Source of the DNA: an uncultured bacterium
GTDB lineage: Bacteria > Patescibacteriota > Minisyncoccia > Phycocordibacterales > Phycocordibacteraceae
Reading direction: 5' to 3'
Length of the DNA: 64,000 bases
NCBI GenBank assembly: GCA_937879955.1
Contig: CALFMK010000001.1
Location: forward strand, 361,853-425,852
Positions 3,003 through 58,857 of this stretch are shown in pieces (the stretch's first letter is position 1; every line of letters starts with the position of its first letter). The position numbers and the translations under genes were made by a program. The notes beneath the pieces are model-generated. The model saw only the letters and a program-made list of their open reading frames with translations, had not been told where the DNA came from and made no database searches.

Positions 3003-3695
3003 TTATTTCTCCTGCATTCCGACCTCCGCAATACGCGCTATCTGGGCAAGGATCTTATAACGTATATCCTTACCCTTCGAGACGCGTAACGCTAAAACAC
3101 CATAATACATATCGCGGTTTTCGTAAATCTTCTTGCCTTTATCCAGGAATATCATCTTCCTGAACTGTGATCGCGGGATAGCGAGGGTCGTGGCCCAGTA
3201 TTCCGTAATTATCTCCTCCCGGTCGCGGTGCGTATCGCTGATGAACACCCGTGGCATGAACCGTTCCCGCTCGACTCCGTAGCACTCCAAGAACCATCGG
3301 ATCATGAGCACGATGACCCGGGGATCAGAGTTGACCACAGCCAGAGAGCTGCTGCTTTCTGCTTTGGCTCCCTCTCCCCAATACAGCCCGAGGCCGACGA
3401 AGAAGAGCTGCTCCGGGGAAAGAGACCGTATGGCTTCTCGTGCTTCAGATTCGGCTATCCGTATGCGTGCCGCCTTCTTCTCCTTATTCGCCTCTGCACC
3501 CATCATGCGACCCTTATGGCCCGCTGCAATCTGCCGCTCTCGGAGATGGGCTCTTTGAGCTGCCGTGAGGGGGACATCACGGGTCCAGATGCTCACCGTG
3601 CCGCTCGATACGCCGAGCAGCCTCGCGATCTCCTTCACGCTCTCTCCCTTGCGTCTAAGCTCTCGGGCACGGATACGCTCCAATGACTTCGCCAT
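3003..3695 (-). CDS. HTH-domain protein with a LAGLIDADG-like motif (possible degenerate or single-motif homing endonuclease)
   Basis: An N-terminal helix-turn-helix (SVKEIARLLGVSSGTVSIWTRD) is followed by LFFVGLGLYWGEGAK, which resembles a LAGLIDADG block. It abuts the tRNA-Met-like gene. Confidence 0.4.
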   Translation of the reverse strand: MAKSLERIRARELRRKGESVKEIARLLGVSSGTVSIWTRDVPLTAAQRAHLRERQIAAGHKGRMMGAEANKEKKAARIRIAESEAREAIRSLSPEQLFFVGLGLYWGEGAKAESSSSLAVVNSDPRVIVLMIRWFLECYGVERERFMPRVFISDTHRDREEIITEYWATTLAIPRSQFRKMIFLDKGKKIYENRDMYYGVLALRVSKGKDIRYKILAQIARIAEVGMQEK

Positions 3696-5635: not shown

Positions 5636-8152
5636 CTATGCCGCGTCCTTCTTCATCGCATCGAGCTTCTCCTGAAGCTCCTTCACCTTCTCAAGGATGT
5701 CCTTGATGAGGGCTGCGCGAGCCTCTTCGGTCATGGTCGGTGCCGGGGTCGCTGCGGCGATTGCAGCCATGGTGAGCGGGCCGAAGAATCCGGTCGCCGG
5801 TACGCCATGCGCTGCCTGCCATGCCTTGAGAGCCTCGGTCGTCATAGGACCGAAGAATCCGGTAGGCGCAGCGATCTTGAGGAGACCTGCGTCGATCAGC
5901 ATCTGCTGGAGCGCGTTCACGTCAGCTCCGTTAGAACCAGCAGAGAGGTTCGCAGAGAAGTTGTACGTGGACGCACCGAGGACCTGGCCTCCGTCTACTC
6001 CGCCGGCAGTACCGGTGCCGGTGTTAGTGGCAGTCGAGCGGCTGCTACCGCCAGAGCGGCCGCGGCTCGGCTCTTCAGGACGAAGAACGTAGACACGTCC
6101 GGTAACGGCGCCGGAAACACGCTCGGAAGAGACATACTGACCGTTCGTATCGATCACCGACACGTTAGCTTTGGCGATGTCATCAACCCAGATCGCGTCG
6201 TTCTCATCATGCTTGCTTACGCCGTTTACGGTGAGCTCAGCGGCAGTCACGACGTTCACGCCACGATCGACGTTCACACCGTTCCAACCGTTACCAGAGG
6301 TGGTGAGGTTCGTGACGGTCACGGTCGAGCCATTCACGAGAAGTCCGGACTTGCCGCTACTCTTAACGGTTACATCCGTAAGAATCACGCCAGTCGTAGC
6401 ATATGCCTGGATACCGTGAACACCTGCCTTACCAACAACCGTGAGGTCGTTCACGGAGACGTTTGCTCCAGTGATGAGAACGACCGACCCCGTGAGAGCA
6501 CCGGAAGCCGTGATGGTCTTTCCGTTACCGTTGATAGTTACGGCGTGATCAGCCGTCACCTGAGACGAGACCGAGAAGGAGTCGCTAAGAGTGATGGCTG
6601 GGATATGAGCTGCGAGAGCCGCATTGAGCTCTGCCTCGCTCTTAACCGTGTTGAGGTAGTACGCCTTAGCAGGTGCCTGATCAACAACGGTGTACTGTGC
6701 ATCTGCGTTGACACTGCCCTTGTTGGTGTCATCAACGAAAATCGCAGGGCCGATATCGGAATGCGAGCTCGTACCAGTAACGGTAAGGACTGCTGGAGTC
6801 GTTACGCCAGAACCCTGGTCAACATTGATGCCATGCCAGTTGTTTCCAGACGTGGTGACATTGTTAACGGTAACGGTCGAGCCGTTGACCATGATTCCGG
6901 ACTTGTTCGCGTTCTTCGCGGTTACGCCATCGAGCGTGACATTGGTTGCGACATATGCCTGGATACCCTGAACCGGAAGACGCGCTGCATCTACCGTAAG
7001 GTTCTTGATAGTTACGTCGCTAGCCGTGACGAGTACTACAGAACCGGTGACTCCGGTAGCTGCGGTTACGGTATGGCCGTTACCCTCAATGGTTACCTTC
7101 TTGTCGACATTTACCGTCGTGGTCTCGGTGACGTCATGGTTGAGCACGATGGTGTCGCCAGCGTTTGCTGCAGCGATAGCAGCGCTAAGCGTATCGAATG
7201 AATTCGTTACACCCATGTCGCTCCACTGAACCGTGTAAGGACGGTTACCGAACACGCCATCGGCTGGAGTTCCCTCTGCACCGTAGTTGTACTGGTTAAG
7301 GATTACCTCCTTGATAGCGCTAGTGCCTGCGGTTCCATCGAGAGGCACCTGACTAAGCAGGTCACCGTTGATGTAGTAGTTCCAGTTTCCATCAGCGACC
7401 TCTACCCGAAGTACGTAGGTCTGACCAGGAACAGCTTCCATGACGGGAGTCCATGAGCCGCTACCCCTGGAGTCCCAGACACGGAATACTGGATCCTTAG
7501 TAAGACTTGCGCTGTTTCCAGCGGTATATCCAGCAGCGCTGGTGTAGTCGATGATTCCCCACTCACCTACTGCGCCGTTTCCGGTCGCCCAGAGGCCTGC
7601 ACGGACAGCCGTGTTCTCCCATGCCGGATCGATATAGAGAGATGCCTCTACGGAAGAAACATTGTTAAGCGAGGCCTTACGTCCTTCGGTGCGATAGAAC
7701 GCGCTTCCATCCTGCTGAGCATCAAGCGTACCGTCGATTACGACAACACCACCATTCCAAGAATCCGGTGCATGACGGTCAATCGCCCAACTACCATCGA
7801 TAGCAACAGCGCGATCGATAGTCACCTTAGCTGGCTCGGGAGCAACAACAGCATCGAGAGAGATATCATCAACTGCCGAGAAAAGGCTTGCGACAGAATT
7901 GATGACTTCCTCAACGATCCCTGCCTCTTCCTCGACAACGGGGGTCTCTTCCTGATTAACAATCTCTTCGGACTCCTCGATAGGAGCCTCTTCAACAACG
8001 GGAGTCTCGATGACAACATCAGAGATGACCTCTGGCGTCGTCTCGACGACCTCGGCTGGTGCCTCCTCAGCGAAGACAGCCGCCGGAACGAACGATGCGA
8101 CGAGCGCGAGAAGCGTGAGCGCGCTCGCGAGCTTGGTAAAGAAATTGGTCAT
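5636..8152 (-). CDS. large secreted right-handed beta-helix repeat protein with C-terminal peptidoglycan-binding domain
   Basis: Signal peptide and acidic linker, then a lectin/jelly-roll-like segment. Two ~170-aa internally duplicated blocks carry NGSTVTV.N.TTSGN.W.G.NVD parallel beta-helix rungs. The C-terminus has a PG_binding_1-like motif (LQQMLIDAGLL...TGFFGP.T..A.KAWQ). Confidence 0.7.
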   Translation of the reverse strand: MTNFFTKLASALTLLALVASFVPAAVFAEEAPAEVVETTPEVISDVVIETPVVEEAPIEESEEIVNQEETPVVEEEAGIVEEVINSVASLFSAVDDISLDAVVAPEPAKVTIDRAVAIDGSWAIDRHAPDSWNGGVVVIDGTLDAQQDGSAFYRTEGRKASLNNVSSVEASLYIDPAWENTAVRAGLWATGNGAVGEWGIIDYTSAAGYTAGNSASLTKDPVFRVWDSRGSGSWTPVMEAVPGQTYVLRVEVADGNWNYYINGDLLSQVPLDGTAGTSAIKEVILNQYNYGAEGTPADGVFGNRPYTVQWSDMGVTNSFDTLSAAIAAANAGDTIVLNHDVTETTTVNVDKKVTIEGNGHTVTAATGVTGSVVLVTASDVTIKNLTVDAARLPVQGIQAYVATNVTLDGVTAKNANKSGIMVNGSTVTVNNVTTSGNNWHGINVDQGSGVTTPAVLTVTGTSSHSDIGPAIFVDDTNKGSVNADAQYTVVDQAPAKAYYLNTVKSEAELNAALAAHIPAITLSDSFSVSSQVTADHAVTINGNGKTITASGALTGSVVLITGANVSVNDLTVVGKAGVHGIQAYATTGVILTDVTVKSSGKSGLLVNGSTVTVTNLTTSGNGWNGVNVDRGVNVVTAAELTVNGVSKHDENDAIWVDDIAKANVSVIDTNGQYVSSERVSGAVTGRVYVLRPEEPSRGRSGGSSRSTATNTGTGTAGGVDGGQVLGASTYNFSANLSAGSNGADVNALQQMLIDAGLLKIAAPTGFFGPMTTEALKAWQAAHGVPATGFFGPLTMAAIAAATPAPTMTEEARAALIKDILEKVKELQEKLDAMKKDAA

Positions 8153-36512: not shown

Positions 36513-37148
36513 TTGATGCGCTATCCAAACAAATCCCATCGTCATGCCGTTACACTGCCGTCGCCTTCTGTGGAATTGGCAGAGTTCATAGGCATCATGC
36601 TCGGAGATGGCGGACTAAGCAGGTACCAGGTCTCAATATCGCTCAATCAGGAGAGCGATTCTGAATTCAGTGAATTTGTTTGCTCCCTGATACAGGAGCT
36701 CTTTGCCGTCACGCCGAGCGTGTACGATCGCAGGAATCAGCTTCTTCGTACCCTAGTCATATCCCGAACCGAACTCGTAGAATATCTTCACGGCCTCGGG
36801 CTTCCCATAGGGAACAAGGTCTCGCAAGAGTGCGACATCCCCGATTGGATACGTCGCGACCGATCATTCCTTACGGCGTGCATCCGGGGACTTGTCGACA
36901 CGGACGGGTCCGTATTCACTCATCGTTACCGAGTGAACGGGAAATGGTATGCATACAAGAAACTCTCCTTCACCAGCGCATCGCAGCCACTTTTGCATTC
37001 GGTACTGGAATCGCTCATTTCATTCGGCATGCATGCGCGCATAGGCAGTGCCAAGGATGTCCGCATCGACAGCAAAGCCGATATGGAACGTTATTTCACC
37101 CTCATCGGGACGAGCAATCCTAAGCATTTGAGAAGATATGCCTTTTAA
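36513..37148 (+). CDS. LAGLIDADG homing endonuclease (two-motif, free-standing)
   Basis: Two LAGLIDADG blocks (FIGIMLGDGGL and IRGLVDTDGSV) spaced about 100 aa apart. Confidence 0.8.
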   Translation: MMRYPNKSHRHAVTLPSPSVELAEFIGIMLGDGGLSRYQVSISLNQESDSEFSEFVCSLIQELFAVTPSVYDRRNQLLRTLVISRTELVEYLHGLGLPIGNKVSQECDIPDWIRRDRSFLTACIRGLVDTDGSVFTHRYRVNGKWYAYKKLSFTSASQPLLHSVLESLISFGMHARIGSAKDVRIDSKADMERYFTLIGTSNPKHLRRYAF

Positions 37149-37166: not shown

Positions 37167-37254
37167 GGAGACGTGGGTGAGCTGGCCGAAACCACCACAC
37201 TGCTAACGTGGCAGGGGGTAAAACCCCTCGAGAGTTCGAATCTCTCCGTCTCCG
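37167..37254 (+). tRNA. tRNA-Ser (anticodon GCT), class II with long variable arm
   Basis: Acceptor GGAGACG/CGTCTCC, 3-bp D-stem, anticodon loop CTGCTAA, variable arm GGGGG-TAAA-CCCCT, T-loop TTCGAAT. Confidence 0.8.
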
Positions 37255-37260
37255 CAAAGA

Positions 37261-47959: not shown

Positions 47960-48033
47960 GCACCCTTAGCTCAGTTGGTTAGAGCACCGAGCTTATACCT
48001 CGGCGGTCCTTGGTTCGAGTCCAAGAGGGTGCA
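47960..48033 (+). tRNA. tRNA-Ile with anticodon TAT (UAU)
   Basis: Acceptor GCACCCT/AGGGTGC, D-arm TAGCTCAGTTGGTTAGAGC, perfect anticodon stem CCGAG/CTCGG, loop CTTATAC, T-loop TTCGAGT. Confidence 0.7.
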
Positions 48034-48106
48034 CCGATTTACGGGAAGTGCGTAGACGGGGCTTTTCTGGTACGGTGCAATCAGGTAAGACAGAAGGAGT
48101 ACTGAT

Positions 48107-48421: not shown

Positions 48422-50422
<2,001 letters not shown>

Positions 50423-50890
50423 ATGCTGGTACCCTTCCTATATATGAGCGCACTCATAGAGAACAAGAAGGCGCGCCTCCGGTTCGAGGTGCTTGAGACC
50501 TACCAGGCAGGCCTCGAGCTCCAGGGGTTCGAGGTGAAATCCGTCCGGGCGAAGCTCGGCAGCCTCGACGGCTCCCGCGTGATCGTGCGCGGGGGCGAGG
50601 CCTTCATCGTCGGCATGACGGTCCCTCCCTACCAGGCCGCGAACGCGCCCAAGACCTATGACCCAGAGCGTCCGCGCCGCCTCCTCCTCTCGCGCAAGGA
50701 GATCGTCGAGCTGCTCGAGGCAGAGTCGAAGAAAGGATTGACACTAGTGCCTTTGGAACTGTATAATAGTGGCAGATACCTGAAGGCACGCATCGCCATC
50801 GTCCGCGGAAAAGGCAAGGCTGACAAGCGCGAAGACATGAAGCGCATGGAGGCTAAGAAGGAAGCGGACCGTGCGATGCGCCAGAAGTAG
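50423..50890 (+). CDS. smpB: SsrA-binding protein SmpB
   Basis: Conserved SmpB blocks (IENKKA..F, GFEVKSV, RKLLL.K.EI). The real start is probably at 50444. Confidence 0.8.
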   Translation: MLVPFLYMSALIENKKARLRFEVLETYQAGLELQGFEVKSVRAKLGSLDGSRVIVRGGEAFIVGMTVPPYQAANAPKTYDPERPRRLLLSRKEIVELLEAESKKGLTLVPLELYNSGRYLKARIAIVRGKGKADKREDMKRMEAKKEADRAMRQK

Positions 50891-50913
50891 CTTGAGAGAA
50901 TGAATGTCTGAAA

Positions 50914-51138
50914 GTGACGAGCCAGATAACGGAGGAAGAGATGGCGAAGCACGAAGACGGTATGCGTATCGACCCGGCCGCGCGTGAGAGCGGCTGCCAG
51001 TTCATGGCCAAGATCGAGATGTCCGGAGAGGACGATCGGTACACCGATCCGATCTGGGACAGCGAGCAGCCCGGCTTCGCCGAGGACGACAGCGGCAGGA
51101 ACGATACCCGCCTGCCGCTCGACCAGCTTCTCCGCTGA
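50914..51138 (+). CDS. small acidic hypothetical protein between smpB and ssrA
   Basis: 74 aa with genome-typical GC3 codon bias. Very acidic. No family recognised. Confidence 0.3.
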   Translation: MTSQITEEEMAKHEDGMRIDPAARESGCQFMAKIEMSGEDDRYTDPIWDSEQPGFAEDDSGRNDTRLPLDQLLR

Positions 51139-51258
51139 CGCAGCGGCATCACTACCGGAGAATCGCTTGGGATAGCCGGCGATTCTCCTCACTTTCAGGT
51201 ATTCATTCTGTGCGGGCCCCTCCCGTTCTGGAACCGTTCTCCTGACCGGTTCCAGAAC

Positions 51259-51667
51259 GGGGGTGACCGGCTTTGACGGTCCTGTACTTTGAGAGACGTG
51301 CGGCGCGGTGGAAGGATGCTGACCACCTAAAAACGCATTCACCCAAACTTGCCAAGAACACTCTTGCAAGCGTGAAGTCCCCGTACTTCGGTATGAAGGA
51401 TTTCGCGTTCGCTTACGCGTAAAAGCTTCGCGCTTTCGCCTGAGCGACGTTCATGCAGTCCCGTTCCTTCAGGGGTCTGTATGGGCGGAATCATCTGAAG
51501 GATCGGTATCGCGGCTTTCCCAGGCCACGGCTTAAAAGACGGGATCAGGCAGGGGCGTTTTCGCTAACGTTCCTATTCCCCTGCCGAAGCTTCAACGTTA
51601 GCTACGCGCCGTAGACTCGCTCTTGAAGCAGGATTCGGACCGGAGTTCGACTCTCCGCACCTCCACC
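51259..51667 (+). ncRNA. ssrA: tmRNA (ssrA), standard one-piece
   Basis: 5' GGGGGUGACCGGCUUUGACGG matches the tmRNA 5' consensus. The 3' tRNA-like end is GGACCGGAGTTCGACTCTCCG-CACCTCC-A-CC, whose acceptor is complementary to the 5' end. It lies 370 bp downstream of smpB. Candidate tag ORF is ...KSPYFGMKDFAFAYA*. Confidence 0.7.
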
Positions 51668-51693
51668 GATATAGAACTATGTAGAAATACATA

Positions 51694-51733
51694 GAACATT
51701 AGAAAACCGCCTCATGGGCGGTTTTCTAATGTT
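51694..51733. terminator. 18-bp perfect hairpin (GAACATTAGAAAACCGCC-TCAT-GGCGGTTTTCTAATGTTC) between ssrA and the convergent DUF305 gene
   Basis: Seen directly in the sequence, with T-tracts inside the 3' arm on both strands. Confidence 0.55.
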
Positions 51734-51746
51734 CTACAGCTAGGAG

Positions 51747-52142
51747 CTACTTCCCGTACCAAGCTTTCTGCCAATCTTGCATCTCTTTAATCTCGGCGTT
51801 CTGTGCAGAGATTATGTTCTTTGCCAGGTCCTTTATCTCTTGATGCTTTGCATCCTTGAGGGCTGCCTCTGCCATTACTACTGCTCCCTGATGATGCATG
51901 ATCATCTCGCTCAAGAACGCTTGATCAAATGCATCTCCTGTTTTTCCAGAGAGACCCTGCATCATGGAATCCATTTCTCCCTGCATCCCGTTCATTGGAC
52001 CTCCCATGGTCGTTCCGTCGGCCATCATATGGCCACCAGTATTTACTACTGGCTCGGAAACCTTATTCATGCCCAGAGCGTATCCACCGCCGGCACCGAT
52101 AATAAGTGCGACGAGCCCGATAACAACTACGTTCTTTTCCAT
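51747..52142 (-). CDS. DUF305 family protein (secreted or membrane-anchored)
   Basis: DQAFLSEMIMHHQGAVVMAE...AEIKEMQDW matches the DUF305 signature. It is in a lower-GC region. Confidence 0.6.
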   Translation of the reverse strand: MEKNVVVIGLVALIIGAGGGYALGMNKVSEPVVNTGGHMMADGTTMGGPMNGMQGEMDSMMQGLSGKTGDAFDQAFLSEMIMHHQGAVVMAEAALKDAKHQEIKDLAKNIISAQNAEIKEMQDWQKAWYGK

Positions 52143-52182
52143 AGAGTTTAATTAGATTAGATAAGTAGAGAGTTTGCTAAAT

Positions 52183-52551
52183 CTATGGAGCCTTAGGGTG
52201 AAGAATCCCGCGTGAGAATAGCTCTTGCAACAATGGAGGTGCTGGATAGAAACGTCTGCGATATCCGGGCGGCCGTTCGGGCCTTGGAACAATGGGCCAA
52301 ACCCTTGCGAGAATAAAGACAGGTATGGCAAACGTGAGAATCTCGACAAGTGCGATAGTAAACGTATTCTGCCAGCTTGTTATGTGGTCCAAGGCTGACA
52401 TGGGACAGAGCGAAGTTTCACCCTGCATGAAGGGACATCCGCCAGGTGTCTGGTCCATAGGCATGGCCATTAAAAACAGCATCAGGAGAGGAACGGTGAG
52501 CACGAGGAGTAGCGTCCCCCAGGAACCAGCCCTCTGTATCTGCTCGGTCAT
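52183..52551 (-). CDS. small membrane protein with Met/Cys-rich motif (MPMDQTPGGCPFMQGETSLCPM), a putative metal-binding site
   Basis: Two or three TM helices. The Met-rich Cys pair is reminiscent of Cu(I)-binding motifs. Confidence 0.4.
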   Translation of the reverse strand: MTEQIQRAGSWGTLLLVLTVPLLMLFLMAMPMDQTPGGCPFMQGETSLCPMSALDHITSWQNTFTIALVEILTFAIPVFILARVWPIVPRPERPPGYRRRFYPAPPLLQELFSRGILHPKAP

Positions 52552-52630
52552 GCACTCATTCTATACCTATTGTTTATGGACAAAAGGTACACTTCTTCTA
52601 GGTATTACTGGCTCACAGCACATAAATTTT

Positions 52631-53089
52631 ATGACCCCCAGAGACACGTCATACGGCAAGCTGGCCCTAATGGCCGGACTTCACTTAATCGCAATGTTCT
52701 TCCTCATGTTCGCGATGGTAAATACTTTTGCGAACGCCATTCCGAATATTAACTTCGTCTATATGGCCGCTCTTATGACCGCGCCGATGCTCATTCTCGA
52801 GATACTTCTTATGGGAATGATGTACAAGGACAGGAAATTAAATGTGACGGTTGTTTGTTTTGGCCTTATACTCCTTGCGGTTTCATTCTTACTTATTCGA
52901 TTCCAGACAGGTGTTGGAGACAGGGGGTTTCTCCAATCCATGATTCCTCATCACTCAGGAGCAATTCTCATGTGCGAGAAGGCAAACATCACTGATCCTG
53001 AGATCAAACAGCTGTGCGACGACATTATTCTCAGCCAGCGACAGGAGATAACTCAGATGAAAGAAATTCTTAGTCGACTGGACCGATAA
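52631..53089 (+). CDS. DUF305 family protein (second copy)
   Basis: Two TM helices, then MIPHHSGAILMCE...QEITQMKEIL, which is the DUF305 signature. Start set at MTPRD, since the upstream ORF-track extension overlaps the minus-strand gene. Confidence 0.55.
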   Translation: MTPRDTSYGKLALMAGLHLIAMFFLMFAMVNTFANAIPNINFVYMAALMTAPMLILEILLMGMMYKDRKLNVTVVCFGLILLAVSFLLIRFQTGVGDRGFLQSMIPHHSGAILMCEKANITDPEIKQLCDDIILSQRQEITQMKEILSRLDR

Positions 53090-53324
53090 ATGGCAAATCG
53101 AGGTAGGTTCTAATCTGAAAGCACCCGACTTCCATGTTTGTATGGACTGGTTGGCCTCTGCTCATTTTGACACCCTACCAACTGTCCGCTACAGAAAGGA
53201 AATACGAAGCCCTGCTTTCCAGTCATGAGGCTCTAACTTCGTGTAGCCACTTCCATCCAGTTTCAATAAAAGGCCTCTTCGGAGGCCTTTTATGTTGGCA
53301 CGTCTTGACGGTTTTTTTGGGGTT

Positions 53325-53981
53325 TTATTCTGCGCGCAGACTATCTACTATCTGGTCCACAACACTATCAGGGATGACCTGATCTTCTGAGCGGTCATAC
53401 CACATGGCTATGACTGGATACGAGGGATTCTTTGTCTCGATGAACGTTACGAAGAAAATCTCATCGCCGCACTCTTCGAAACCATTGCACGCAGGCAGAT
53501 ACCCGACCTTAACTACCGTTAGCCCGTGGGCGTTGACGCTCTTGGCGCAGGAAAGCGGGTATAGACCCTGATCGCAATACTTGTGAATGTCCCAGGTGCG
53601 AAGCGTATCTTCACGCGAAGGCTCGCGCGGGGTCGGATACTGTGCGAACAATGCGCTCTCTGCCGACATGAACCAGAGCGTGCCATTCTTGCCGGCAACT
53701 CCTAAGTAACGGTGATCGCACTGATCTTCGGGGGTACGGAGTTCCGGCGGACAGTCGCCCCGCTCCCTCACCGCTTCCTCTATAGGGCTTTCGAGCGAGT
53801 ACTCGAAGGCGATGCCTAGGGCGGGGCTTACATAGGTGCGCGTAGAGTACGTATCTTGCACGCTGTGGTTCTCCCCTTCCCTGGTCACTCCTAGCATGAA
53901 TCCGAGAACTGCCACGATGACGAGCGCGACCCCGAGCAGCAGCGCGCGGAGGAGCGGAGAATTGATTATGGTCTTATACAT
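53325..53981 (-). CDS. membrane-anchored hypothetical protein with Cys-rich extracytoplasmic domain
   Basis: N-terminal TM and several Cys pairs. No family recognised. Confidence 0.45.
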   Translation of the reverse strand: MYKTIINSPLLRALLLGVALVIVAVLGFMLGVTREGENHSVQDTYSTRTYVSPALGIAFEYSLESPIEEAVRERGDCPPELRTPEDQCDHRYLGVAGKNGTLWFMSAESALFAQYPTPREPSREDTLRTWDIHKYCDQGLYPLSCAKSVNAHGLTVVKVGYLPACNGFEECGDEIFFVTFIETKNPSYPVIAMWYDRSEDQVIPDSVVDQIVDSLRAE

Positions 53982-53985
53982 ACGA

Positions 53986-54795
53986 TTATGTTGCTAGCCA
54001 GCCCCCGTCAACATAGAACGTTGCCCCCGTGCAATAGCTTGACTCATCGGAAGCAAGGAACGCGACCAGTGCTGATACCTCCTCTGGCTTTCCCATTCGC
54101 TTGAGCGGTATCCCTGCAAGCATCTGATCGCGCGTCTCACTCGTGGCATCGGAATTTCGCACCATGGGCGTATCTATGGCTCCTGGAGCGATCGCGTTTA
54201 CAAGAATGCCGTGCGGCGCAAGCTCGATCGCCAGCGCTTCAGTCATGGCGATAACTCCGCCCTTCGACGCCGCGTAATGCACGCCTCCAGCGATGCCGAT
54301 TCCCACCTGCCCAGAGGCTACGGAGGAGATATTGATTATCCTCCCGCCTCCATCCCTAGCCATCTCCTGTGCAGCGCGCTGAGCGCACAGGAACTGTCCC
54401 TTGAGATTCACATCGAGCATGCGGACCCATGCTTCTTCCGTAAGCTCAAGCGCAGGCGCGGTCTCGTAGATGCCTGCGTTATTCACCAGGATATCCAGCC
54501 GACCATACTTCATGATGATGCCGGCAATGACCTCATTGACTTCATGCTTCTGGGATACGTCGAGACGGAAGCAGGTGGACTCGCTATCGCACACCTCATT
54601 CACCTCCTGCATGACCCTGCGGCAATCGTTCAGATTCACATCGGTAATGATCACCGTTGCTCCCTGCTTGGCGAGCGTGAGCGCGTGAGTGCGACCCATT
54701 CCCCTTCCTGCCCCCGTAATGAGCGCGACTTTGTCTTTGAGGCTGAACATGCGCATGGCGTTAGGTTGGATAATGTATGGCGCGTCTTCTAGCAT
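53986..54795 (-). CDS. SDR-family oxidoreductase (short-chain dehydrogenase/reductase)
   Basis: TGAGRGMG cofactor motif, NNAG, and the catalytic S...YAASK triad. Confidence 0.85.
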   Translation of the reverse strand: MLEDAPYIIQPNAMRMFSLKDKVALITGAGRGMGRTHALTLAKQGATVIITDVNLNDCRRVMQEVNEVCDSESTCFRLDVSQKHEVNEVIAGIIMKYGRLDILVNNAGIYETAPALELTEEAWVRMLDVNLKGQFLCAQRAAQEMARDGGGRIINISSVASGQVGIGIAGGVHYAASKGGVIAMTEALAIELAPHGILVNAIAPGAIDTPMVRNSDATSETRDQMLAGIPLKRMGKPEEVSALVAFLASDESSYCTGATFYVDGGWLAT

Positions 54796-54857
54796 CGAGC
54801 GGTGCTCAGGAAAAGGAAAAGCACCTTGTCACGCGTGATGATCTCGTACGCCATATA

Positions 54858-55391
54858 TCAGTTCATGAGCATTACTGCGTAATTGATAGCCACGGCAATC
54901 ACGACCCAGGCGAGATAGGGCGCGAGCAGCCATGCAGCAGCCTTCGATGAGTTCTTCACCCGCAGGATAAGGACCAGCACGGATACGCCGACGACGACCG
55001 CTGCCCATAAGGCAGGCACGAGCTGATGAATCCCGAAGAAGAGATAGTTCCAGAGAAGGATCAGGAGCGCGTTGCCCATGTACACGAGCACCGTGCTCCG
55101 GAACGCTCGTGTCTGCTCTTTCTGCGCATCACAAAAGATGCTTAGCGATAGGACCGTAGTTACGAACAGCGTTCCCCATATGGCCGCGATGACGAGCTCG
55201 GGCGGAGTCCATAGCGGCGTATGCAAGCTTCCGTACCAACCCAGACCGAGAGTCGTGATGATGCCGATCGCAAAGAACACCAGGGTGGCTGCGTAGAAGA
55301 TGAAGAAGTCACGGACAACCCTGTCGCTAAACGCGCCCGGGGGCAGGCTCGTCACTGCAGGGATGTTAGGGGTACTCATGTCTTGGATCAT
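54858..55391 (-). CDS. tspO: TspO/MBR (tryptophan-rich sensory protein) family
   Basis: Five TM helices with Trp-rich loops (WNYLFF, LLAPYLAWV). Confidence 0.65.
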   Translation of the reverse strand: MIQDMSTPNIPAVTSLPPGAFSDRVVRDFFIFYAATLVFFAIGIITTLGLGWYGSLHTPLWTPPELVIAAIWGTLFVTTVLSLSIFCDAQKEQTRAFRSTVLVYMGNALLILLWNYLFFGIHQLVPALWAAVVVGVSVLVLILRVKNSSKAAAWLLAPYLAWVVIAVAINYAVMLMN

Positions 55392-55457
55392 AGTCGTAAT
55401 CTGAGGATAGCTTCCTATATGTTCGTCATGTAACCTTTCATGCCTTCCGCCGGGCTT

Positions 55458-55943
55458 CTACAGAGGCGGCTCCGCCGGATCGACTCGAGTGAGTACCTGG
55501 TCCGTGCCTGTACCGAACGTAAAGTCTCCCCACCTGACCCAGGCAGGCGAGAGGCGGTAGAACTTGAGCTCGCTGCTATCAAGATGCGATAGCGGTATGC
55601 CGTACTGCTTGTCGGTCATGAGCCTGTGCACGAAGCCAGTGAGCAGCGGGTCATTGGTGGCGGTGTACGTAAGGTCAGCAACATCCCCTTCTACCTGAAT
55701 AGTCTTCGGAGTTCCCGCCTCTGACACAACGAAAGCAGCTTTCTGATTGGAAGTCAGGTCGGCAGCCTTTCGAGTGTTCTTGAGGGTTATGAAATAAATA
55801 TTGAATGCGTCATCGCACGTATAGTAAATCGTGCGTGCGTGCGGTTCTCCGGCACGAGAGACAGTGGCCAACACGCCAACATCATGGTCGACCAAGAATG
55901 ACAGAGCCTCGTCTCGCTCTCCTTCTGTGTCTGACTCCTTCAT
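55458..55943 (-). CDS. pyridoxamine 5'-phosphate oxidase-like FMN-binding split-barrel protein
   Basis: GVLATVSRAGEPHARTIYY... is typical of the PNPOx-like / general stress protein 26 fold. Confidence 0.55.
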   Translation of the reverse strand: MKESDTEGERDEALSFLVDHDVGVLATVSRAGEPHARTIYYTCDDAFNIYFITLKNTRKAADLTSNQKAAFVVSEAGTPKTIQVEGDVADLTYTATNDPLLTGFVHRLMTDKQYGIPLSHLDSSELKFYRLSPAWVRWGDFTFGTGTDQVLTRVDPAEPPL

Positions 55944-56099
55944 GAAGCAATGGTACACCTTAATACAGCAACTCAATAGTCTGTATAGGAAGCCCGCTAT
56001 CCTTAAAACAAGGGTCCTAGGAGCCTGGCTTAAAAAGGGCTCTAGGAAACCACCTCCCTCTGGATTACAGCCTGTGTGAGTCCTTAATCAGAGCGCTAC

Positions 56100-56669
56100 T
56101 CAGTTCCCTCCGAGGCACCGCTGCTGGTAGACGCCGCTCTTATTCAGCCAGTCTGCACCGGTTCCGCTATATTTCTGCGCGCAATACGGCGGGTTGTTCC
56201 CCACTTCGTACGCGTTCGAGTAATAGCCACCATCGTTCGCGCCGATGTTCGTCTCTACATAGACTAAGAGCCCGTATGACTGCCGCGCATCGTCCGACTG
56301 TGACGCATAGGAATAGTAGTAGTTGCCCTGGGTCGCGTTCGAGAGCGATTCCGGTCTGATGGAGATGTACGGCGCGAGCGCGGTCGTGAGGGTATTGAGT
56401 CGGTCACAGTGCCCCCAGTTCTCCGTGAGCGATCCGCACGTGGACTCCGCACCGAGCCCGTGCTCGATCGCCGGATACGCGCCGTTCGCCGCATAGTAGA
56501 GCTCGAGCGCCTTCGCTATCTCTTTCGCCTGCGCGACGCGAGCCGCATCCCGAGCCTTCGCGCGCGCGGTATTGAGGGATGCCATGACCACCGACGAGAG
56601 GATGCCGATGATCGCGATGACCACGAGGAGCTCGATGAGGGTGAAGCCTGTAGGTCGATTCGTTTTCAT
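56100..56669 (-). CDS. type IV pilin-like protein (dispersed paralogue)
   Basis: PTG-FTLIELLVVIAIIGILSSVVMASLNTARAKARD N-terminus. Start set at MKTNRPTG. Confidence 0.7.
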   Translation of the reverse strand: MKTNRPTGFTLIELLVVIAIIGILSSVVMASLNTARAKARDAARVAQAKEIAKALELYYAANGAYPAIEHGLGAESTCGSLTENWGHCDRLNTLTTALAPYISIRPESLSNATQGNYYYSYASQSDDARQSYGLLVYVETNIGANDGGYYSNAYEVGNNPPYCAQKYSGTGADWLNKSGVYQQRCLGGN

Positions 56670-56813
56670 CGCCCTCAAGTATACAAGGCGTAGTGGCACG
56701 ATATGTCTGAGTCTGGTCCATGCATCTATGTACAATTTCATAAATATGTACTATAGTTACCACAAGGACGCCCGGATGGCGGGATAGGTCCTCAAGCTGA
56801 AGGATTATTCGGT

Positions 56814-57095
56814 ATGAAGAAAGCTCTTTTCGTGGGCGCCATGGCGGCCCTGCTCTTCACGAGCCAGGCCCAGGCCATCGGCCGCAACAGCGACAAGAAC
56901 CTCAGGATCGCCACCGCGACCAAGATCGGCGGCATCCTGAGCGACGACGTGACCCTGTCCGACGTCAAGCGCAAGATGCTGAGCGTGAAGTGGACGGCCA
57001 CGACGCCCTCCGGCACCTACCGCTGCGAAGCCGACGACATGGTCGAGCACGTCAACTGCATCAAGGTCGCCGCCACGGTCGCCGACAACAAGTAG
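56814..57095 (+). CDS. small secreted protein (signal peptide, two Cys)
   Basis: Signal peptide MKKALFVGAMAALLFTSQAQA and good codon bias. Followed by a terminator. Confidence 0.5.
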   Translation: MKKALFVGAMAALLFTSQAQAIGRNSDKNLRIATATKIGGILSDDVTLSDVKRKMLSVKWTATTPSGTYRCEADDMVEHVNCIKVAATVADNK

Positions 57096-57166: not shown

Positions 57167-57715
57167 CTAGAGTCGAAGGAGTACCTTGAGCGCGAGCGCG
57201 ATAAGGACGAGGGCGCCGCCAAGCTCGATGTGATTGCCGAACAGGTGCTTGCTTCGCCTTCCGAAATAGACCCCGGCGAGCGCCATGAGGAACGTGACGA
57301 TACCGATTACAGCGATCGCAACCGGAACGTTCACTGGCACGAAATTGAACGTGATACCCACGACGAACGCGTCTATGCTGGTCGCGACAGCGAGGAGCAG
57401 CAGCGTCGACGTCTTCGTGATATCCCTCTCACGCTCAGCATCCTCTTCGCCGAACGATTCGAAGAACATCTTGCCTCCGACGAGAAGGAGCAGGACGAAC
57501 CCGACGACGTGACCGTATGCGAGCAGATACTCGCGGAAGCCGAGCCCCAGCACGAGACCGAGGAGCGGCATGGCTGCCTGGAAGGCGCCGAAGAAGAGCG
57601 CGACCTTGAGCGCGGCGCGGGGCCGCACGTGCGCGAGCGCACCTGCACCAACTGCGACTATGGCAGCATCGAGTGCAAGGCTCACGGCGATGAGGACTAT
57701 CTCGAGAACTGACAT
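57167..57715 (-). CDS. mntP: manganese efflux pump MntP family
   Basis: Six TM helices with two DUF204 repeats (LALDAAIVAVGAG; TSIDAFVVGI). Confidence 0.7.
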   Translation of the reverse strand: MSVLEIVLIAVSLALDAAIVAVGAGALAHVRPRAALKVALFFGAFQAAMPLLGLVLGLGFREYLLAYGHVVGFVLLLLVGGKMFFESFGEEDAERERDITKTSTLLLLAVATSIDAFVVGITFNFVPVNVPVAIAVIGIVTFLMALAGVYFGRRSKHLFGNHIELGGALVLIALALKVLLRL

Positions 57716-57835
57716 GGCGTACCGAAGAGCATAACACCCGGATAGGAACCAGGCAGACGTCTCGCTATCGTATTCTTTATAGAGGACGCCGTATGCATCG
57801 AGTCCGAATACGGAACCTTGAGAAGCACAGCGGGG

Positions 57836-58342
57836 CTATTTTGCGGGACCGAGCAGGCAGTACCATCCCGTGCCCGCAGAACTCGTCGCGTACTGGGGAC
57901 GCGGACGCTCCGGGGAGAACGTCAGGACCCATTCGTAATCGTTGTACGATTGGCCGCCGCAGGATTGCGCCGAGCCGGTCACGCGATACGAGAGGATGTA
58001 GCACTTCCCGCTCGTCGGATCCTGCGGCACGGAAGGCAGGTACCCGGCCAAGACGAGCGGCGCGAGCACGGTCGCGACAGATCCACTGGTTCCCCATCCA
58101 TTGCAGGCAGGGTTGGCGTTCGCATAGTGCGCGCCGCCGCCTGCGATAGGGTTGCCCGTATCCGCGTATTGCATGCGGAGCGCCTGGTCGATAGTTCGCA
58201 TGTCCGACATGCGCTGCGTGTCGCGCGCGTTCATGCGCGCCGTGTTGAGCGACGCGAGCACCACGGTCGAAAGGATGCCGATGATCGCGATCACCACGAG
58301 GAGCTCGATGAGGGTGAAGCCTTTCGGGTGCGCTCTATCCAT
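57836..58342 (-). CDS. type IV pilin-like protein (dispersed paralogue)
   Basis: PKG-FTLIELLVVIAIIGILSTVVLASLNTARMNARD N-terminus. Start set at MDRAHPKG. Confidence 0.7.
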   Translation of the reverse strand: MDRAHPKGFTLIELLVVIAIIGILSTVVLASLNTARMNARDTQRMSDMRTIDQALRMQYADTGNPIAGGGAHYANANPACNGWGTSGSVATVLAPLVLAGYLPSVPQDPTSGKCYILSYRVTGSAQSCGGQSYNDYEWVLTFSPERPRPQYATSSAGTGWYCLLGPAK

Positions 58343-58471
58343 AGTTAGAGTATAGGGCATCAATGCCGCCCTAACCCGCCCATCAATCACCCTTGCGCCC
58401 GATTCATGAACCGTTCATGCTAAGGGGCGTAGAGTCGTCACTGTTAGACAGGCTTATCGTAACTATCAACT

Positions 58472-58768
58472 ATGGATTCCAAGACAAAGCTCACGCTCGC
58501 ATGGACGGTGGCCGGCATTCTGGCCGTGCTTCTCGCCATTACCCTCTTCTTCCTCATGAACCAGCCGAAGGACCTCGACCAGGTGCTTCAGGAAGGCAAG
58601 GAGGACATCACCGCCAAGCGCGACGAGGTGGCGAAGGCCTGCAACGGCTCGGACGCCGCAAGCAAGGCCAAGTGCCAGGACGAGCTCCGCGAGCTCTCCG
58701 ATATCCTCCGCGACTTCAGCAAGGATATCGACAAGGCCACCACGACCGCAGCCGAGAAGGCCCAGTAG
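58472..58768 (+). CDS. small membrane-anchored coiled-coil protein (hypothetical)
   Basis: One TM then a charged helical tail, with strong GC3 bias. Confidence 0.45.
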   Translation: MDSKTKLTLAWTVAGILAVLLAITLFFLMNQPKDLDQVLQEGKEDITAKRDEVAKACNGSDAASKAKCQDELRELSDILRDFSKDIDKATTTAAEKAQ

Positions 58769-58857
58769 CCCTCAGGACGAGAAACGTGCGGAAACGGCCC
58801 GGTATTTCCGGGCCGTTCCTTGTTTAGGGCCTATTTACGTGCTAGAATATAGGTACT

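Follow-up and report, generated by a model that had tools for sequence, protein, structure and literature searches.

A probably recent import of an integrase-less, copper-type gene cassette into the ssrA hotspot of a Paceibacterota bacterium

Transfer RNA (tRNA) and transfer-messenger RNA (tmRNA) genes serve as integration sites of genomic islands and prophages with tyrosine integrases. Classical islands of this type bring an integrase and leave a clean duplicate of the 3′ end of ssrA, the tmRNA gene, or of the tRNA gene that received them. The locus described here lies in a stretch of 64,000 nucleotides (nt), referred to below as the window, from contig CALFMK010000001.1 of GenBank assembly GCA_937879955.1 (positions 361,853 to 425,852, forward strand), whose source organism, by SmpB-based retrieval, is a bacterium of the candidate phyla radiation (CPR) in the Paceibacterota/Kaiserbacteria group. 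Just beyond ssrA, a 1.6-kb, low-GC (guanine-plus-cytosine) cassette of three genes encodes two DUF305 proteins and a small Met/Cys-rich membrane protein. It resembles classical islands in its ssrA 3′-end position and unusual GC, in being absent from relatives, and in carrying accessory (resistance) genes, but differs in lacking both an ssrA duplicate and, among the families searched, an integrase. The composite reading put forward here, which is considered probable, is of an integrase-less cassette recently imported from Paceibacterota of ∼47% GC into an ssrA hotspot, with a module-marked edge and a copper function.

The closest described parallels are the ssrA-linked genomic islands of Dehalococcoides, tandem islands bounded by a 20-bp ssrA repeat that is preceded by a conserved motif not derived from ssrA (McMurdie et al. 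2011; PMC3146451). These islands are integrated by a CcrB-like large serine recombinase (LSR) with a small partner, and many lack an integrase and have been read as cis-mobilizable (PMC3146451). Integron arrays offer a second parallel, with small integrase-less cassettes of unrelated function gathered at one site and a conserved element at each distal end. For the cargo, the nearest characterized protein is CopM of Synechocystis PCC 6803, which binds copper, works in the periplasm and the medium, lowers cellular copper, and confers resistance (PMC4335983). Literature searches on ssrA islands in CPR bacteria returned nothing relevant.

The left anchor of the locus is smpB (50423-50890, forward strand; Pfam SmpB, E = 2e-42), which is syntenic in 80 of 80 related loci, and ssrA follows on the same strand at 51259-51668 (Rfam RF00023, 94 bits, full length); ARAGORN missed this tmRNA in the window and Rfam recovered it. 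The original prediction had placed a fall in GC directly after ssrA, and the numbers agree: mean GC is 0.469 over 51669-53324 and 0.521 over 51669-56099, compared with 0.614 for the whole window, and the global minimum of the 64 kb begins at 51651 in sliding windows of 1,656 and 4,400 bp (-3.6 and -3.1 standard deviations, respectively). Also as predicted, the drop is strongest in the DUF305 pair and the Met/Cys gene. Against a host-gene median of 0.84, GC at third codon positions (GC3) is 0.54 in DUF305-A, 0.56 in the Met/Cys gene, and 0.55 in DUF305-B, and their values on a scale like the codon adaptation index (0.31, 0.22, and 0.25) are the lowest in the window. The genes that follow are less depressed, with GC3 of 0.65 in hyp218, 0.65 in a short-chain dehydrogenase/reductase (SDR) gene, 0.72 in a TspO gene, 0.62 in a PNPOx-like gene, and 0.75 in a pilin gene. 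Gene identities proposed from the sequence were recovered by Pfam (DUF305 twice, adh_short, TspO_MBR, PNPOx, and an N_methyl pilin). The expected return to high GC at the pilin gene was not seen; recovery is gradual, with values of 0.59-0.60 as far as 60 kb, and the non-syntenic region extends past the proposed right border to mntP (to 57166).

Related loci are labeled in the style L001-L109, with L001-L004 denoting the four closest relatives that have data at the gap between ssrA and mntP. The host lineage is itself a strong GC outlier. Its core genes for FtsH, RecG, SmpB, IF3, and L20 have GC3 of 0.79-0.91, versus 0.51-0.74 in L001-L005 (proteins 84-93% identical); within a genus-level clade of CPR bacteria, GC3 has thus climbed quickly across the whole genome. 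The contrast of the islet is so conspicuous because the host lineage moved to very high GC3 relative to its genus-mates.

The right anchor, mntP (57167-57715, reverse strand; Pfam Mntp, E = 2e-45; syntenic in L001-L004), is the first gene beyond the islet that is syntenic with relatives. L001-L004 share the frame recG-ftsH-smpB-ssrA...mntP-infC-rplT, with SmpB 85-87% and IF3 90-93% identical, and their gaps between ssrA and mntP measure 0.87, 2.2, 3.7, and 6.9 kb, alongside 5.5 kb in the window. The cargo of those four gaps is unrelated (secreted proteins, an oxidase, a methyltransferase, a pilin, and an antiporter) and includes none of the seven islet genes. The ssrA-mntP region is a genuine hypervariable hotspot whose content is different in every close relative, and the ssrA-linked integration site that had been proposed falls within it.

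Horizontal acquisition of the low-GC segment, also part of the original prediction, is strongly supported. In L097, which has a GC content of 46.5%, the locus reads ftsH-smpB-ssrA-AbiV-methyltransferase-cassette-TspO-cupin-PNPOx...infC-rplT. The cassette is 89.2% identical between the window and L097 over 1,562 bp (93, 88, and 88% at the amino acid level for DUF305-A, the Met/Cys protein, and DUF305-B), compared with nucleotide identities of 75.8% for ssrA, 68% for smpB, and 73.7% for infC. The L097 cassette has a GC3 of 0.47-0.56, the same as that of the window cassette, and the other carriers all have 46-49% GC, equal to the GC of the window cassette. Gene order is identical elsewhere, with DUF305-B divergent from the Met/Cys gene and DUF305-A, and the cassette of L097 and of L086 lies at the same locus, on the same side of infC. 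Horizontal transfer is concluded from the excess of identity over core genes, a base composition like that of the donor, and the lack of the cassette in genus-level relatives; the direction and route of the transfer are inferred.

The elements that house the cassette in L081 and L084 also encode large and small serine recombinases, Prim-Pol, a ParB-methylase, and a cyclic-oligonucleotide-based antiphage signaling system (CBASS), and this mobile context adjoins tRNA genes. The L081 island also places the cassette near a cation diffusion facilitator (CDF) transporter, DsbB/DsbA, and a P-type ATPase. LOOT RNAs (Rfam RF03000) score above the gathering threshold in or near both of these serine-recombinase elements (L081, 13419-13533; L084, 9256-9371) and downstream of ssrA in L049 (12975-13099), and an Rfam scan of the window found none.

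The acquisition had been described as old, yet its GC3 is unameliorated and strain comparison dates it otherwise. Logan assemblies from other sequencing runs (L088, 7.2 kb, and L096, plus L089) provide one other haplotype of the same species, collinear with positions 49399-56643 and 96.5% identical, with shared gene order and GC profile. Differences amount to 3.2% in ftsH and smpB, 7.6% in hyp218, 4.8% in the SDR gene, 3.2% in the TspO gene, 4.8% in the PNPOx-like gene, and 8.5% in the pilin gene. Between 51112 and 53360, there are 0 differences in 2,249 bp, compared with 255 in the other ∼5.0 kb; at the flank rate, ∼115 would be expected (P∼1e-50), and the next-largest gap free of differences is 210 bp. 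This tract takes in ssrA with its promoter and terminator, the entire cassette, a 235-bp spacer, and the last 36 bp of hyp218. Because it shows no differences where the flanks show 3-8%, the cassette block is much younger than the strain split, and the tract has the signature of a recent import or homogenization (an introgression or sweep block). The reach of the tract into ssrA and hyp218 makes homologous recombination in the flanking sequence the most likely means of its spread between strains.

The two edges of the cassette are of different kinds. On the left, 78 nt of native flank and terminator separate the ssrA 3′ end from the foreign genes, which begin at 51747. This "type-1" flank (51669-51740, forward strand) contains a perfect hairpin with 20-nt arms (51692-51736, inverted repeat I2) that is likely a bidirectional terminator and part of the attachment (att) identity segment. 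The flank (∼60 nt) is identified as the native terminator flank because it stands directly 3′ of genuine ssrA not only in the window but also in L004, L033, L051, and L061, and it recurs 3′ of junction modules in L097, L033, and L051. Alignment with L004 had suggested a junction after the terminator rather than an ssrA-type insertion, a reading overturned once the flank proved to belong to the att segment that is repeated in L033, L051, and L097.

The distal edge is marked by a junction module of ∼165 nt (53101-53266, forward strand; nhmmer E = 3e-42). The original prediction had reported no integrase, no att duplicate, and only a recurring 7-mer; the first two statements hold for the families searched and for duplicates of ssrA, but the boundary module was overlooked. 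The 7-mer itself, CACCTCC near 56.05 kb, occurs 17 times in the window, has no module before its copy at 56051, and is a chance recurrence rather than an att scar. The module carries the motif AGGTTCTAAYC at 53105 and 53228, 123 nt apart, and the element ends in CCACTTCCATCC. A degenerate ssrA-like core, TCCATCC (∼53252-53258), closes the window copy in register with the ssrA-derived cores of other copies. The proposed att core is TCCACC (51662-51667), and the window module would represent an attR-type arm plus core. Beyond it lies a "type-2" flank (53263-53324) with a hairpin at 53267-53290, homologous to the sequence after the module at junction J4 of L097 and copy b of L033 and 100% identical in the conspecific strain; this hairpin is probably the hyp218 terminator.

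A profile of the module gave ten full-length matches: one each in the window, the conspecific L088 and L096, L051, and L086, two in L097, and three in L033. Partial copies occur in L097, L004, and L005, and weaker ones in L084. The full-length copies and those of L004 and L005 lie downstream of ssrA in its orientation regardless of the direction of neighboring genes, except that the L086 contig stops before ssrA. The modules part cargoes that are unrelated to one another, namely a kinase, an AAA-ATPase pair, and a pilin in L033; an M23 peptidase with a 253-aa gene and a PNPOx-like gene in L051; and, across the four junctions of L097, AbiV with a methyltransferase, the copper cassette, the TspO block, and the infC side. 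Comparison with relatives thus indicates that this spot holds arrays of integrase-less cassettes split by a ∼165-nt junction element. The ssrA-proximal cassette of L097 (7026-8548), an AbiV-like HEPN gene and a methyltransferase gene, has 34-35% GC and a GC3 of 0.29-0.34 in a genome of 46.5% GC; defense genes use the ssrA hotspot too.

Two islands, both without an integrase, preserve direct repeats. At the module end of L051, a copy of the last 6 nt of ssrA and 29 nt of flank matches at 35 of 35 positions; in L033, the copy takes in the last 6 nt of ssrA and 34 nt of flank and is 95% identical over 40 nt. The resulting layout, ssrA-core-flank followed by cargo-module-core-flank, has the geometry of attL and attR sites, as in ssrA islands of the Dehalococcoides type. 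The window has no duplicate of the ssrA 3′ end, neither a shared k-mer of at least 13 nt nor a fuzzy match, because its distal core is degenerate (TCCATCC) and is followed by the type-2 flank.

Other identities for the module were considered and rejected. A structured RNA or a tRNA- or tmRNA-like gene is not indicated by any Rfam match, and the consensus fold reaches just -3.9 kcal/mol with almost no covariation (single-sequence z of -1.2). A general host promoter or operator motif is equally unsuitable, as AGGTTCTAACC has 8 matches in the window against 6.7 expected, with close copies only inside the imported block.

Candidate recombinases are found in related loci. An LSR gene abuts a tRNA 3′ end in L084 (a 563-aa LSR with a 166-aa resolvase) and in L109. 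In L052 (10911-12648), a 519-aa LSR gene on the reverse strand lies directly after ssrA, its 3′ end overlapping ssrA, and has perfect inverted repeats of 66 nt on both sides, the left copy beginning at the last 6 nt of ssrA. The arrangement may be a recombination structure of an invertible or other unusual kind, or else an artifact of assembly. An LSR gene after ssrA is seen more weakly in L049 and L072. In the most likely history, drawn by analogy with Dehalococcoides, cassettes built as cargo plus module would be integrated at the last 6 nt of ssrA and its flank by a site-specific recombinase acting in trans, probably of the large serine type. Integration would leave arrays of cassettes separated by module-plus-repeat scars. 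In the species of the window, the distal repeat would then have been lost or replaced, and the cassette would have spread among conspecific strains by homologous recombination in ssrA on the left and the hyp218 3′ end on the right. The recombinase, its activity, and the role of the module are all suggested by this analogy.

The likeness to the Dehalococcoides islands extends to several features. Both consist of tandem, strain-specific islands directly 3′ of a single-copy ssrA with low, atypical GC, and many lack an integration module. The pairing of large and small serine recombinases has its counterpart in the L084 pair and in the LSR of L052. Tandem repeat-bearing junctions with an upstream conserved motif occur in L097 (four junctions) and L033 (three modules), while the window has a single module. 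The differences are as clear. The phylum is CPR/Paceibacterota. The repeat comprises the last 6 nt of ssrA with 29-34 nt of flank, where Dehalococcoides has 20 nt from within the gene (T-loop), and the element upstream of it measures ∼165 nt and bears two AGGTTCTAAYC motifs, in place of a 15-nt motif. The cassettes are very small, at 1.6-2.2 kb. Paceibacterota LSRs may correspond to the DsiB/CcrB-type enzyme, and their action on att sites is a prediction.

Integrons differ in other ways. Their attC sites form imperfect hairpins and their anchor is attI, whereas the module has no conserved fold and the anchor is ssrA; integron cassettes are promoterless, whereas cassettes of the window type carry their own promoters and point both ways. 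No IntI or other tyrosine integrase turned up in the module-bearing loci with examined open reading frames (ORFs) or annotations, although no dedicated IntI search was made. Likewise, no tyrosine integrase turned up in the annotated L081-L096 or in the ORF lists of L001, L004, L033, L051, and L097, the others not having been searched. New here are ssrA-linked island arrays in the CPR phylum, very small integrase-less cassettes, and a distinctive 165-nt module.

The cassette genes suggest what was imported. DUF305-A (51747-52142, reverse strand; Pfam DUF305, 82.7 bits against a cutoff of 27) is a membrane-anchored, Met-rich, single-repeat CopM-like protein of 131 aa, with an N-terminal anchor, a linker holding nine Met in ∼30 residues, and one helical repeat. 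It aligns with both repeats of Synechocystis CopM (PDB 5FFA/5FEJ) at E∼1e-27 with the HH(Q) motif kept. DUF305-B (52631-53089, forward strand; Pfam DUF305, 51.1 bits against the same cutoff) has 152 aa, three transmembrane (TM) helices, and a single C-terminal CopM-like repeat, which by the positive-inside rule would face outward. Forms of 150-152 aa recur in L081, L084, and L097. Longer models of 235 or 265 aa (52292-53089; L088 3546-4253; L096 207-914) were rejected as overextensions across the opposite-strand Met/Cys gene, which they omit. The HH motif aligned with PHHQ of CopM reads MHHQ and PHHS in the two proteins.

Between the divergent genes lies an AT-rich promoter region (52552-52630, 35% GC). 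In comparison with L097, L084, and L081, an inverted repeat, ATACCTA...TAGGTAT, and a AAAGGTACA box in this spacer are kept in all three of those loci, and the repeat may be an operator for a metal-responsive regulator encoded outside the cassette.

The pair shares with CopM the DUF305 helical repeat, the HH(Q) motif, richness in Met, an exported or extracytoplasmic location, and a copper-resistance context. CopM, by contrast, is soluble with two tandem repeats, whereas here there are two separate membrane-anchored single-repeat proteins; CopM is partnered by CopRS/CopBAC, and the partners here are the Cys/Met 2-TM protein and MauE. In the proposed mechanism, CopM-type His/Met helical repeats and a loop with two Cys, Met, and His would be exposed on the outer face of the membrane, as the predicted topology indicates. 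Most likely, the cassette is an extracytoplasmic copper-tolerance module that would bind Cu(I) (or Ag(I)) outside the cell and either buffer it or pass it on. A copper role is thus a reasonable proposal, with copper binding and topology both predicted, and the metal-stress theme of the original prediction is reasonable as well, given the CopM similarity and the gene linkage described next.

The Met/Cys protein (52183-52551, reverse strand) was characterized from its codon-position substitution pattern, a profile family, and an AlphaFold2 (AF2) model. Substitutions among five orthologues concentrate at third codon positions, an excess that marks the ORF as a real gene. An exact look-up of the protein gave no match because gene callers annotate the antisense DUF305-B overextension instead, and automatic calling probably hides family members in public annotations. 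A word index found only seven relatives (65-82% identity), the named ones all Patescibacteria. A profile search reached 1,163 representative clusters at E≤1e-3, all of ∼120-140 aa. The family signature runs TM1, G-C-P-F-M-x-G-x4-C-x-M-x4-H-I-x2-W-Q, TM2, and LQELFSxGILNPK (LQELFSxGILxPK in the window), with C39, C49, and G115 invariant (Cys-x9-Cys); the predicted topology places the signature loop outside the cytoplasm and the tail inside. Sequence searches with 48 diverse members gave no Pfam, NCBIfam, or PDB match. In the AF2 model, the Cys/Met/His loop joins the two helices of a TM hairpin, and a short helix lies at the C terminus (predicted local distance difference test score 76, with the loop at low confidence).

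Gene neighborhoods point in the same direction. Of 50 metagenomic Met/Cys loci no shorter than 4 kb, 44 carry at least one gene for DUF305, MauE/HMBD-MauE, or a P-type ATPase at a distance of up to 6 kb, and the corresponding control counts in 73 loci (1.13 Mb) are 0, 0, and 2. The literature yielded nothing relevant on a link between DUF305 and MauE. A broader proposal, that these loci form an integron-like, ssrA-anchored cassette system of CPR bacteria and that the Met/Cys family is a new core extracytoplasmic copper component acting with DUF305 and MauE, is tentative and, taken jointly, rather doubtful. Under this proposal, the two AGGTTCTAAYC motifs of each module would be sites of protein binding accompanied by a TCCACC core, and a serine recombinase acting in trans would do the capturing at the last 6 nt of ssrA.

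Several observations weigh against the composite reading. On the copper side, the NCBIfam CopM domain scores are 65.8 bits for DUF305-A and 49.0 bits for DUF305-B, and because both fall below the cutoff of 90, the pair is termed CopM-like rather than CopM; each protein has one repeat where CopM has two, and both are TM-anchored. Elsewhere, the cassette usually runs on into a 157-aa gene and an HMBD-MauE gene, and as both are missing in the window, its module may be incomplete. On the integration side, a tblastn search of the window revealed no homologue of serine recombinases or Prim-Pol, and the islet proteins match no Pfam integrase family, with tyrosine integrases not searched across the rest of the window. 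Because the distal att repeat of the window is degenerate and bears another flank, site-specific integration there is inferred from what other genomes show. No intact ssrA island combining an LSR, the module, and a direct repeat was found among the loci. The module has no known binding protein, its pattern has no match in IMG/VR, and it is not a decayed ssrA 3′ fragment, as nhmmer matches no tmRNA gene and the sole alignment (51658-51675) is non-significant. The zero-divergence evidence comes from a single other haplotype, itself metagenome-assembled.

Some of these points also favor the most serious alternative, arrival purely by homologous recombination. In this scenario, ssrA with its terminator and the module with its flank would provide portable homology, related Paceibacterota would exchange cassettes by ordinary recombination following DNA uptake, and the modules would be plain conserved intergenic DNA. 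L097 and L086 have the cassette at this very locus, so that homologous replacement between relatives could account for its position with no integrase at all, and the identical tract does reach beyond the cassette into ssrA and the hyp218 3′ end. The lack of a tblastn-detectable serine recombinase in the window also fits, and the CPR genomes of the set are rich in type IV pilin-like genes, which would be compatible with natural competence. However, the direct repeats of 35 nt (100%) and 40 nt (95%) begin at one ssrA position in two unrelated islands, and the 66-nt repeat beside the LSR gene of L052 begins at that same position; repeats of this kind typify site-specific recombination. On the left, the window and L097 have in common only a ∼40-nt hairpin, a short stretch for recombination between DNAs ∼25% divergent, and the orientation of the module is fixed relative to ssrA whatever the direction of neighboring genes. 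Recombination as the sole route is improbable overall, although a serious contender for this genome.

Much further behind is the possibility that the islet is ancestral, its low GC reflecting functional or expression constraint on membrane and Met-rich proteins and its absence from relatives reflecting loss. Shared gene order and GC profile had been named beforehand as a mark of ancestry, and one conspecific strain does have both, but the genus-level relatives differ. The cassette is also on the same side of infC in the more distant L097 and L086, and other membrane and pilin genes of the window have lowered GC3 too (0.62-0.78). This reading is already contradicted by the 89% identity of the cassette to L097 where core genes reach 68-76%, and by a GC3 of 0.54-0.56, a measure at synonymous sites that falls no lower anywhere in the window and matches that of the donor. 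Intergenic spacers, moreover, are AT-rich and common to L097, the cassette is absent from all four genus-level relatives, and divergence between strains is zero, which together leave ancestry very unlikely. Least likely, by a little, is an assembly or binning chimera joining a low-GC Paceibacterota fragment to a high-GC contig at the conserved ssrA, since, even though ssrA and the junction repeats are conserved sequences where assemblers can mis-join and the assembly of the second sample breaks at 53266-53295, the independent 7.2-kb Logan contig L088 has the identical sequence across both junctions, L096, from a second run, crosses the left one, and GC drops and recovers within single contigs with host-type genes on either side.

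The islet as a whole is not the single unit originally described but a mosaic of at least two modules of different history, the copper cassette and a PNPOx-TspO-SDR-hyp218 block, with a pilin gene and a small ORF in the same gap. The block (53325-55976, reverse strand, 55% GC) comprises hyp218 (53325-53981), the SDR gene (53986-54795; Pfam adh_short), the TspO gene (54858-55391; TspO_MBR), and the PNPOx-like gene (55458-55976; PNPOx). It is 92-97% identical in nucleotide sequence to that of the conspecific strain, and since its divergence between strains is normal or higher, it predates the cassette event. The block recurs as a unit in other Paceibacterota. All four genes are clustered in L090 (64-76% amino acid identity; locus GC 55%), where another DUF305 gene lies ∼1 kb off. 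In L092 and L094, three of the four are clustered with a cupin gene; the SDR gene is not detectable in the L094 cluster, and L092 has both SDR and PNPOx genes, the PNPOx gene being detached. All of these clusters stand in contexts other than ssrA, and the TspO-cupin-PNPOx genes at the matching position of L097 have merely 40-49% identity. The block is a separate, older accessory module whose history in the hotspot is its own. It looks like a general-stress or redox module, presumably akin to sigma-B-type general-stress proteins.

The remainder of the gap holds a type IV pilin-like gene (56100-56741, reverse strand; Pfam N_methyl) and a 93-aa secreted ORF (56814-57095, forward strand), neither with a counterpart in the gaps of L001-L004. 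A second variable patch lies between mntP and infC (57717-58817), with a pilin gene (57836-58390) and a 98-aa ORF (58472-58768); the patch is missing at this position in L002-L004, and the 98-aa ORF is syntenic 5′ of infC in L086 and L097. Upstream, a lineage-specific insert of 330 bp separates smpB from ssrA (50891-51220, forward strand), where relatives have ∼50 bp. Homology resumes at 51221, and the L088 copy is 98.8% identical. The insert contains a 74-aa acidic ORF (50914-51138) with a host-like GC3 of 0.84 and no Pfam match.

Elsewhere in the window, a few features stand apart. ARAGORN places a tRNA-Ile with the anticodon TAT (UAU) at 47960-48035, between recG and ftsH, and a tRNA occupies the equivalent position in L004; such a tRNA is an uncommon bacterial way of decoding AUA. 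A LAGLIDADG homing-endonuclease-like ORF (36513-37148) has the lowest GC3 outside the islet (0.59) and ends 19 nt before a tRNA-Ser gene (37167-37255); a LAGLIDADG ORF likewise adjoins a tRNA at the edge of the metal island in L081 and L082. Two further genes have lower GC3 and may be other acquired patches. One (5636-8152, GC3 0.60) encodes an 838-aa beta-helix/pectate-lyase-like protein with a peptidoglycan-binding domain, and the other (3003-3695, GC3 0.65) encodes a 230-aa helix-turn-helix (HTH) protein beside tRNA-Met/Asp.

Adaptation in CPR bacteria, whose genomes are tiny, is attributed mainly to gene loss and dependence on hosts. To our knowledge, documented mechanisms of gene gain in these bacteria are scarce. 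Base composition is an unusually sensitive detector of horizontal transfer in this organism because of the very high GC3 of its lineage relative to genus-mates. The 15-20 point excess in identity over core genes, together with a zero-divergence tract in a background of 3-8%, amounts to a dated, strain-resolved case of recent gene import. The recurring architecture of ssrA, flank, cargo, and a 165-nt module with its repeat extends the paradigm of the Dehalococcoides ssrA islands to another phylum and to cassettes that are very small and lack an integrase. A large, uncurated family of small membrane proteins has also been flagged, and its genomic linkage makes a copper or thiol role directly testable. 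If the broader proposal is true, the Cys/Met/His 2-TM family, with more than 1,000 clusters and no annotation anywhere, would be a new core part of extracytoplasmic copper handling, and CPR bacteria would possess an integron-like system in which cassettes of copper, AbiV/defense, kinase, or peptidase genes are captured at ssrA and exchanged between lineages.

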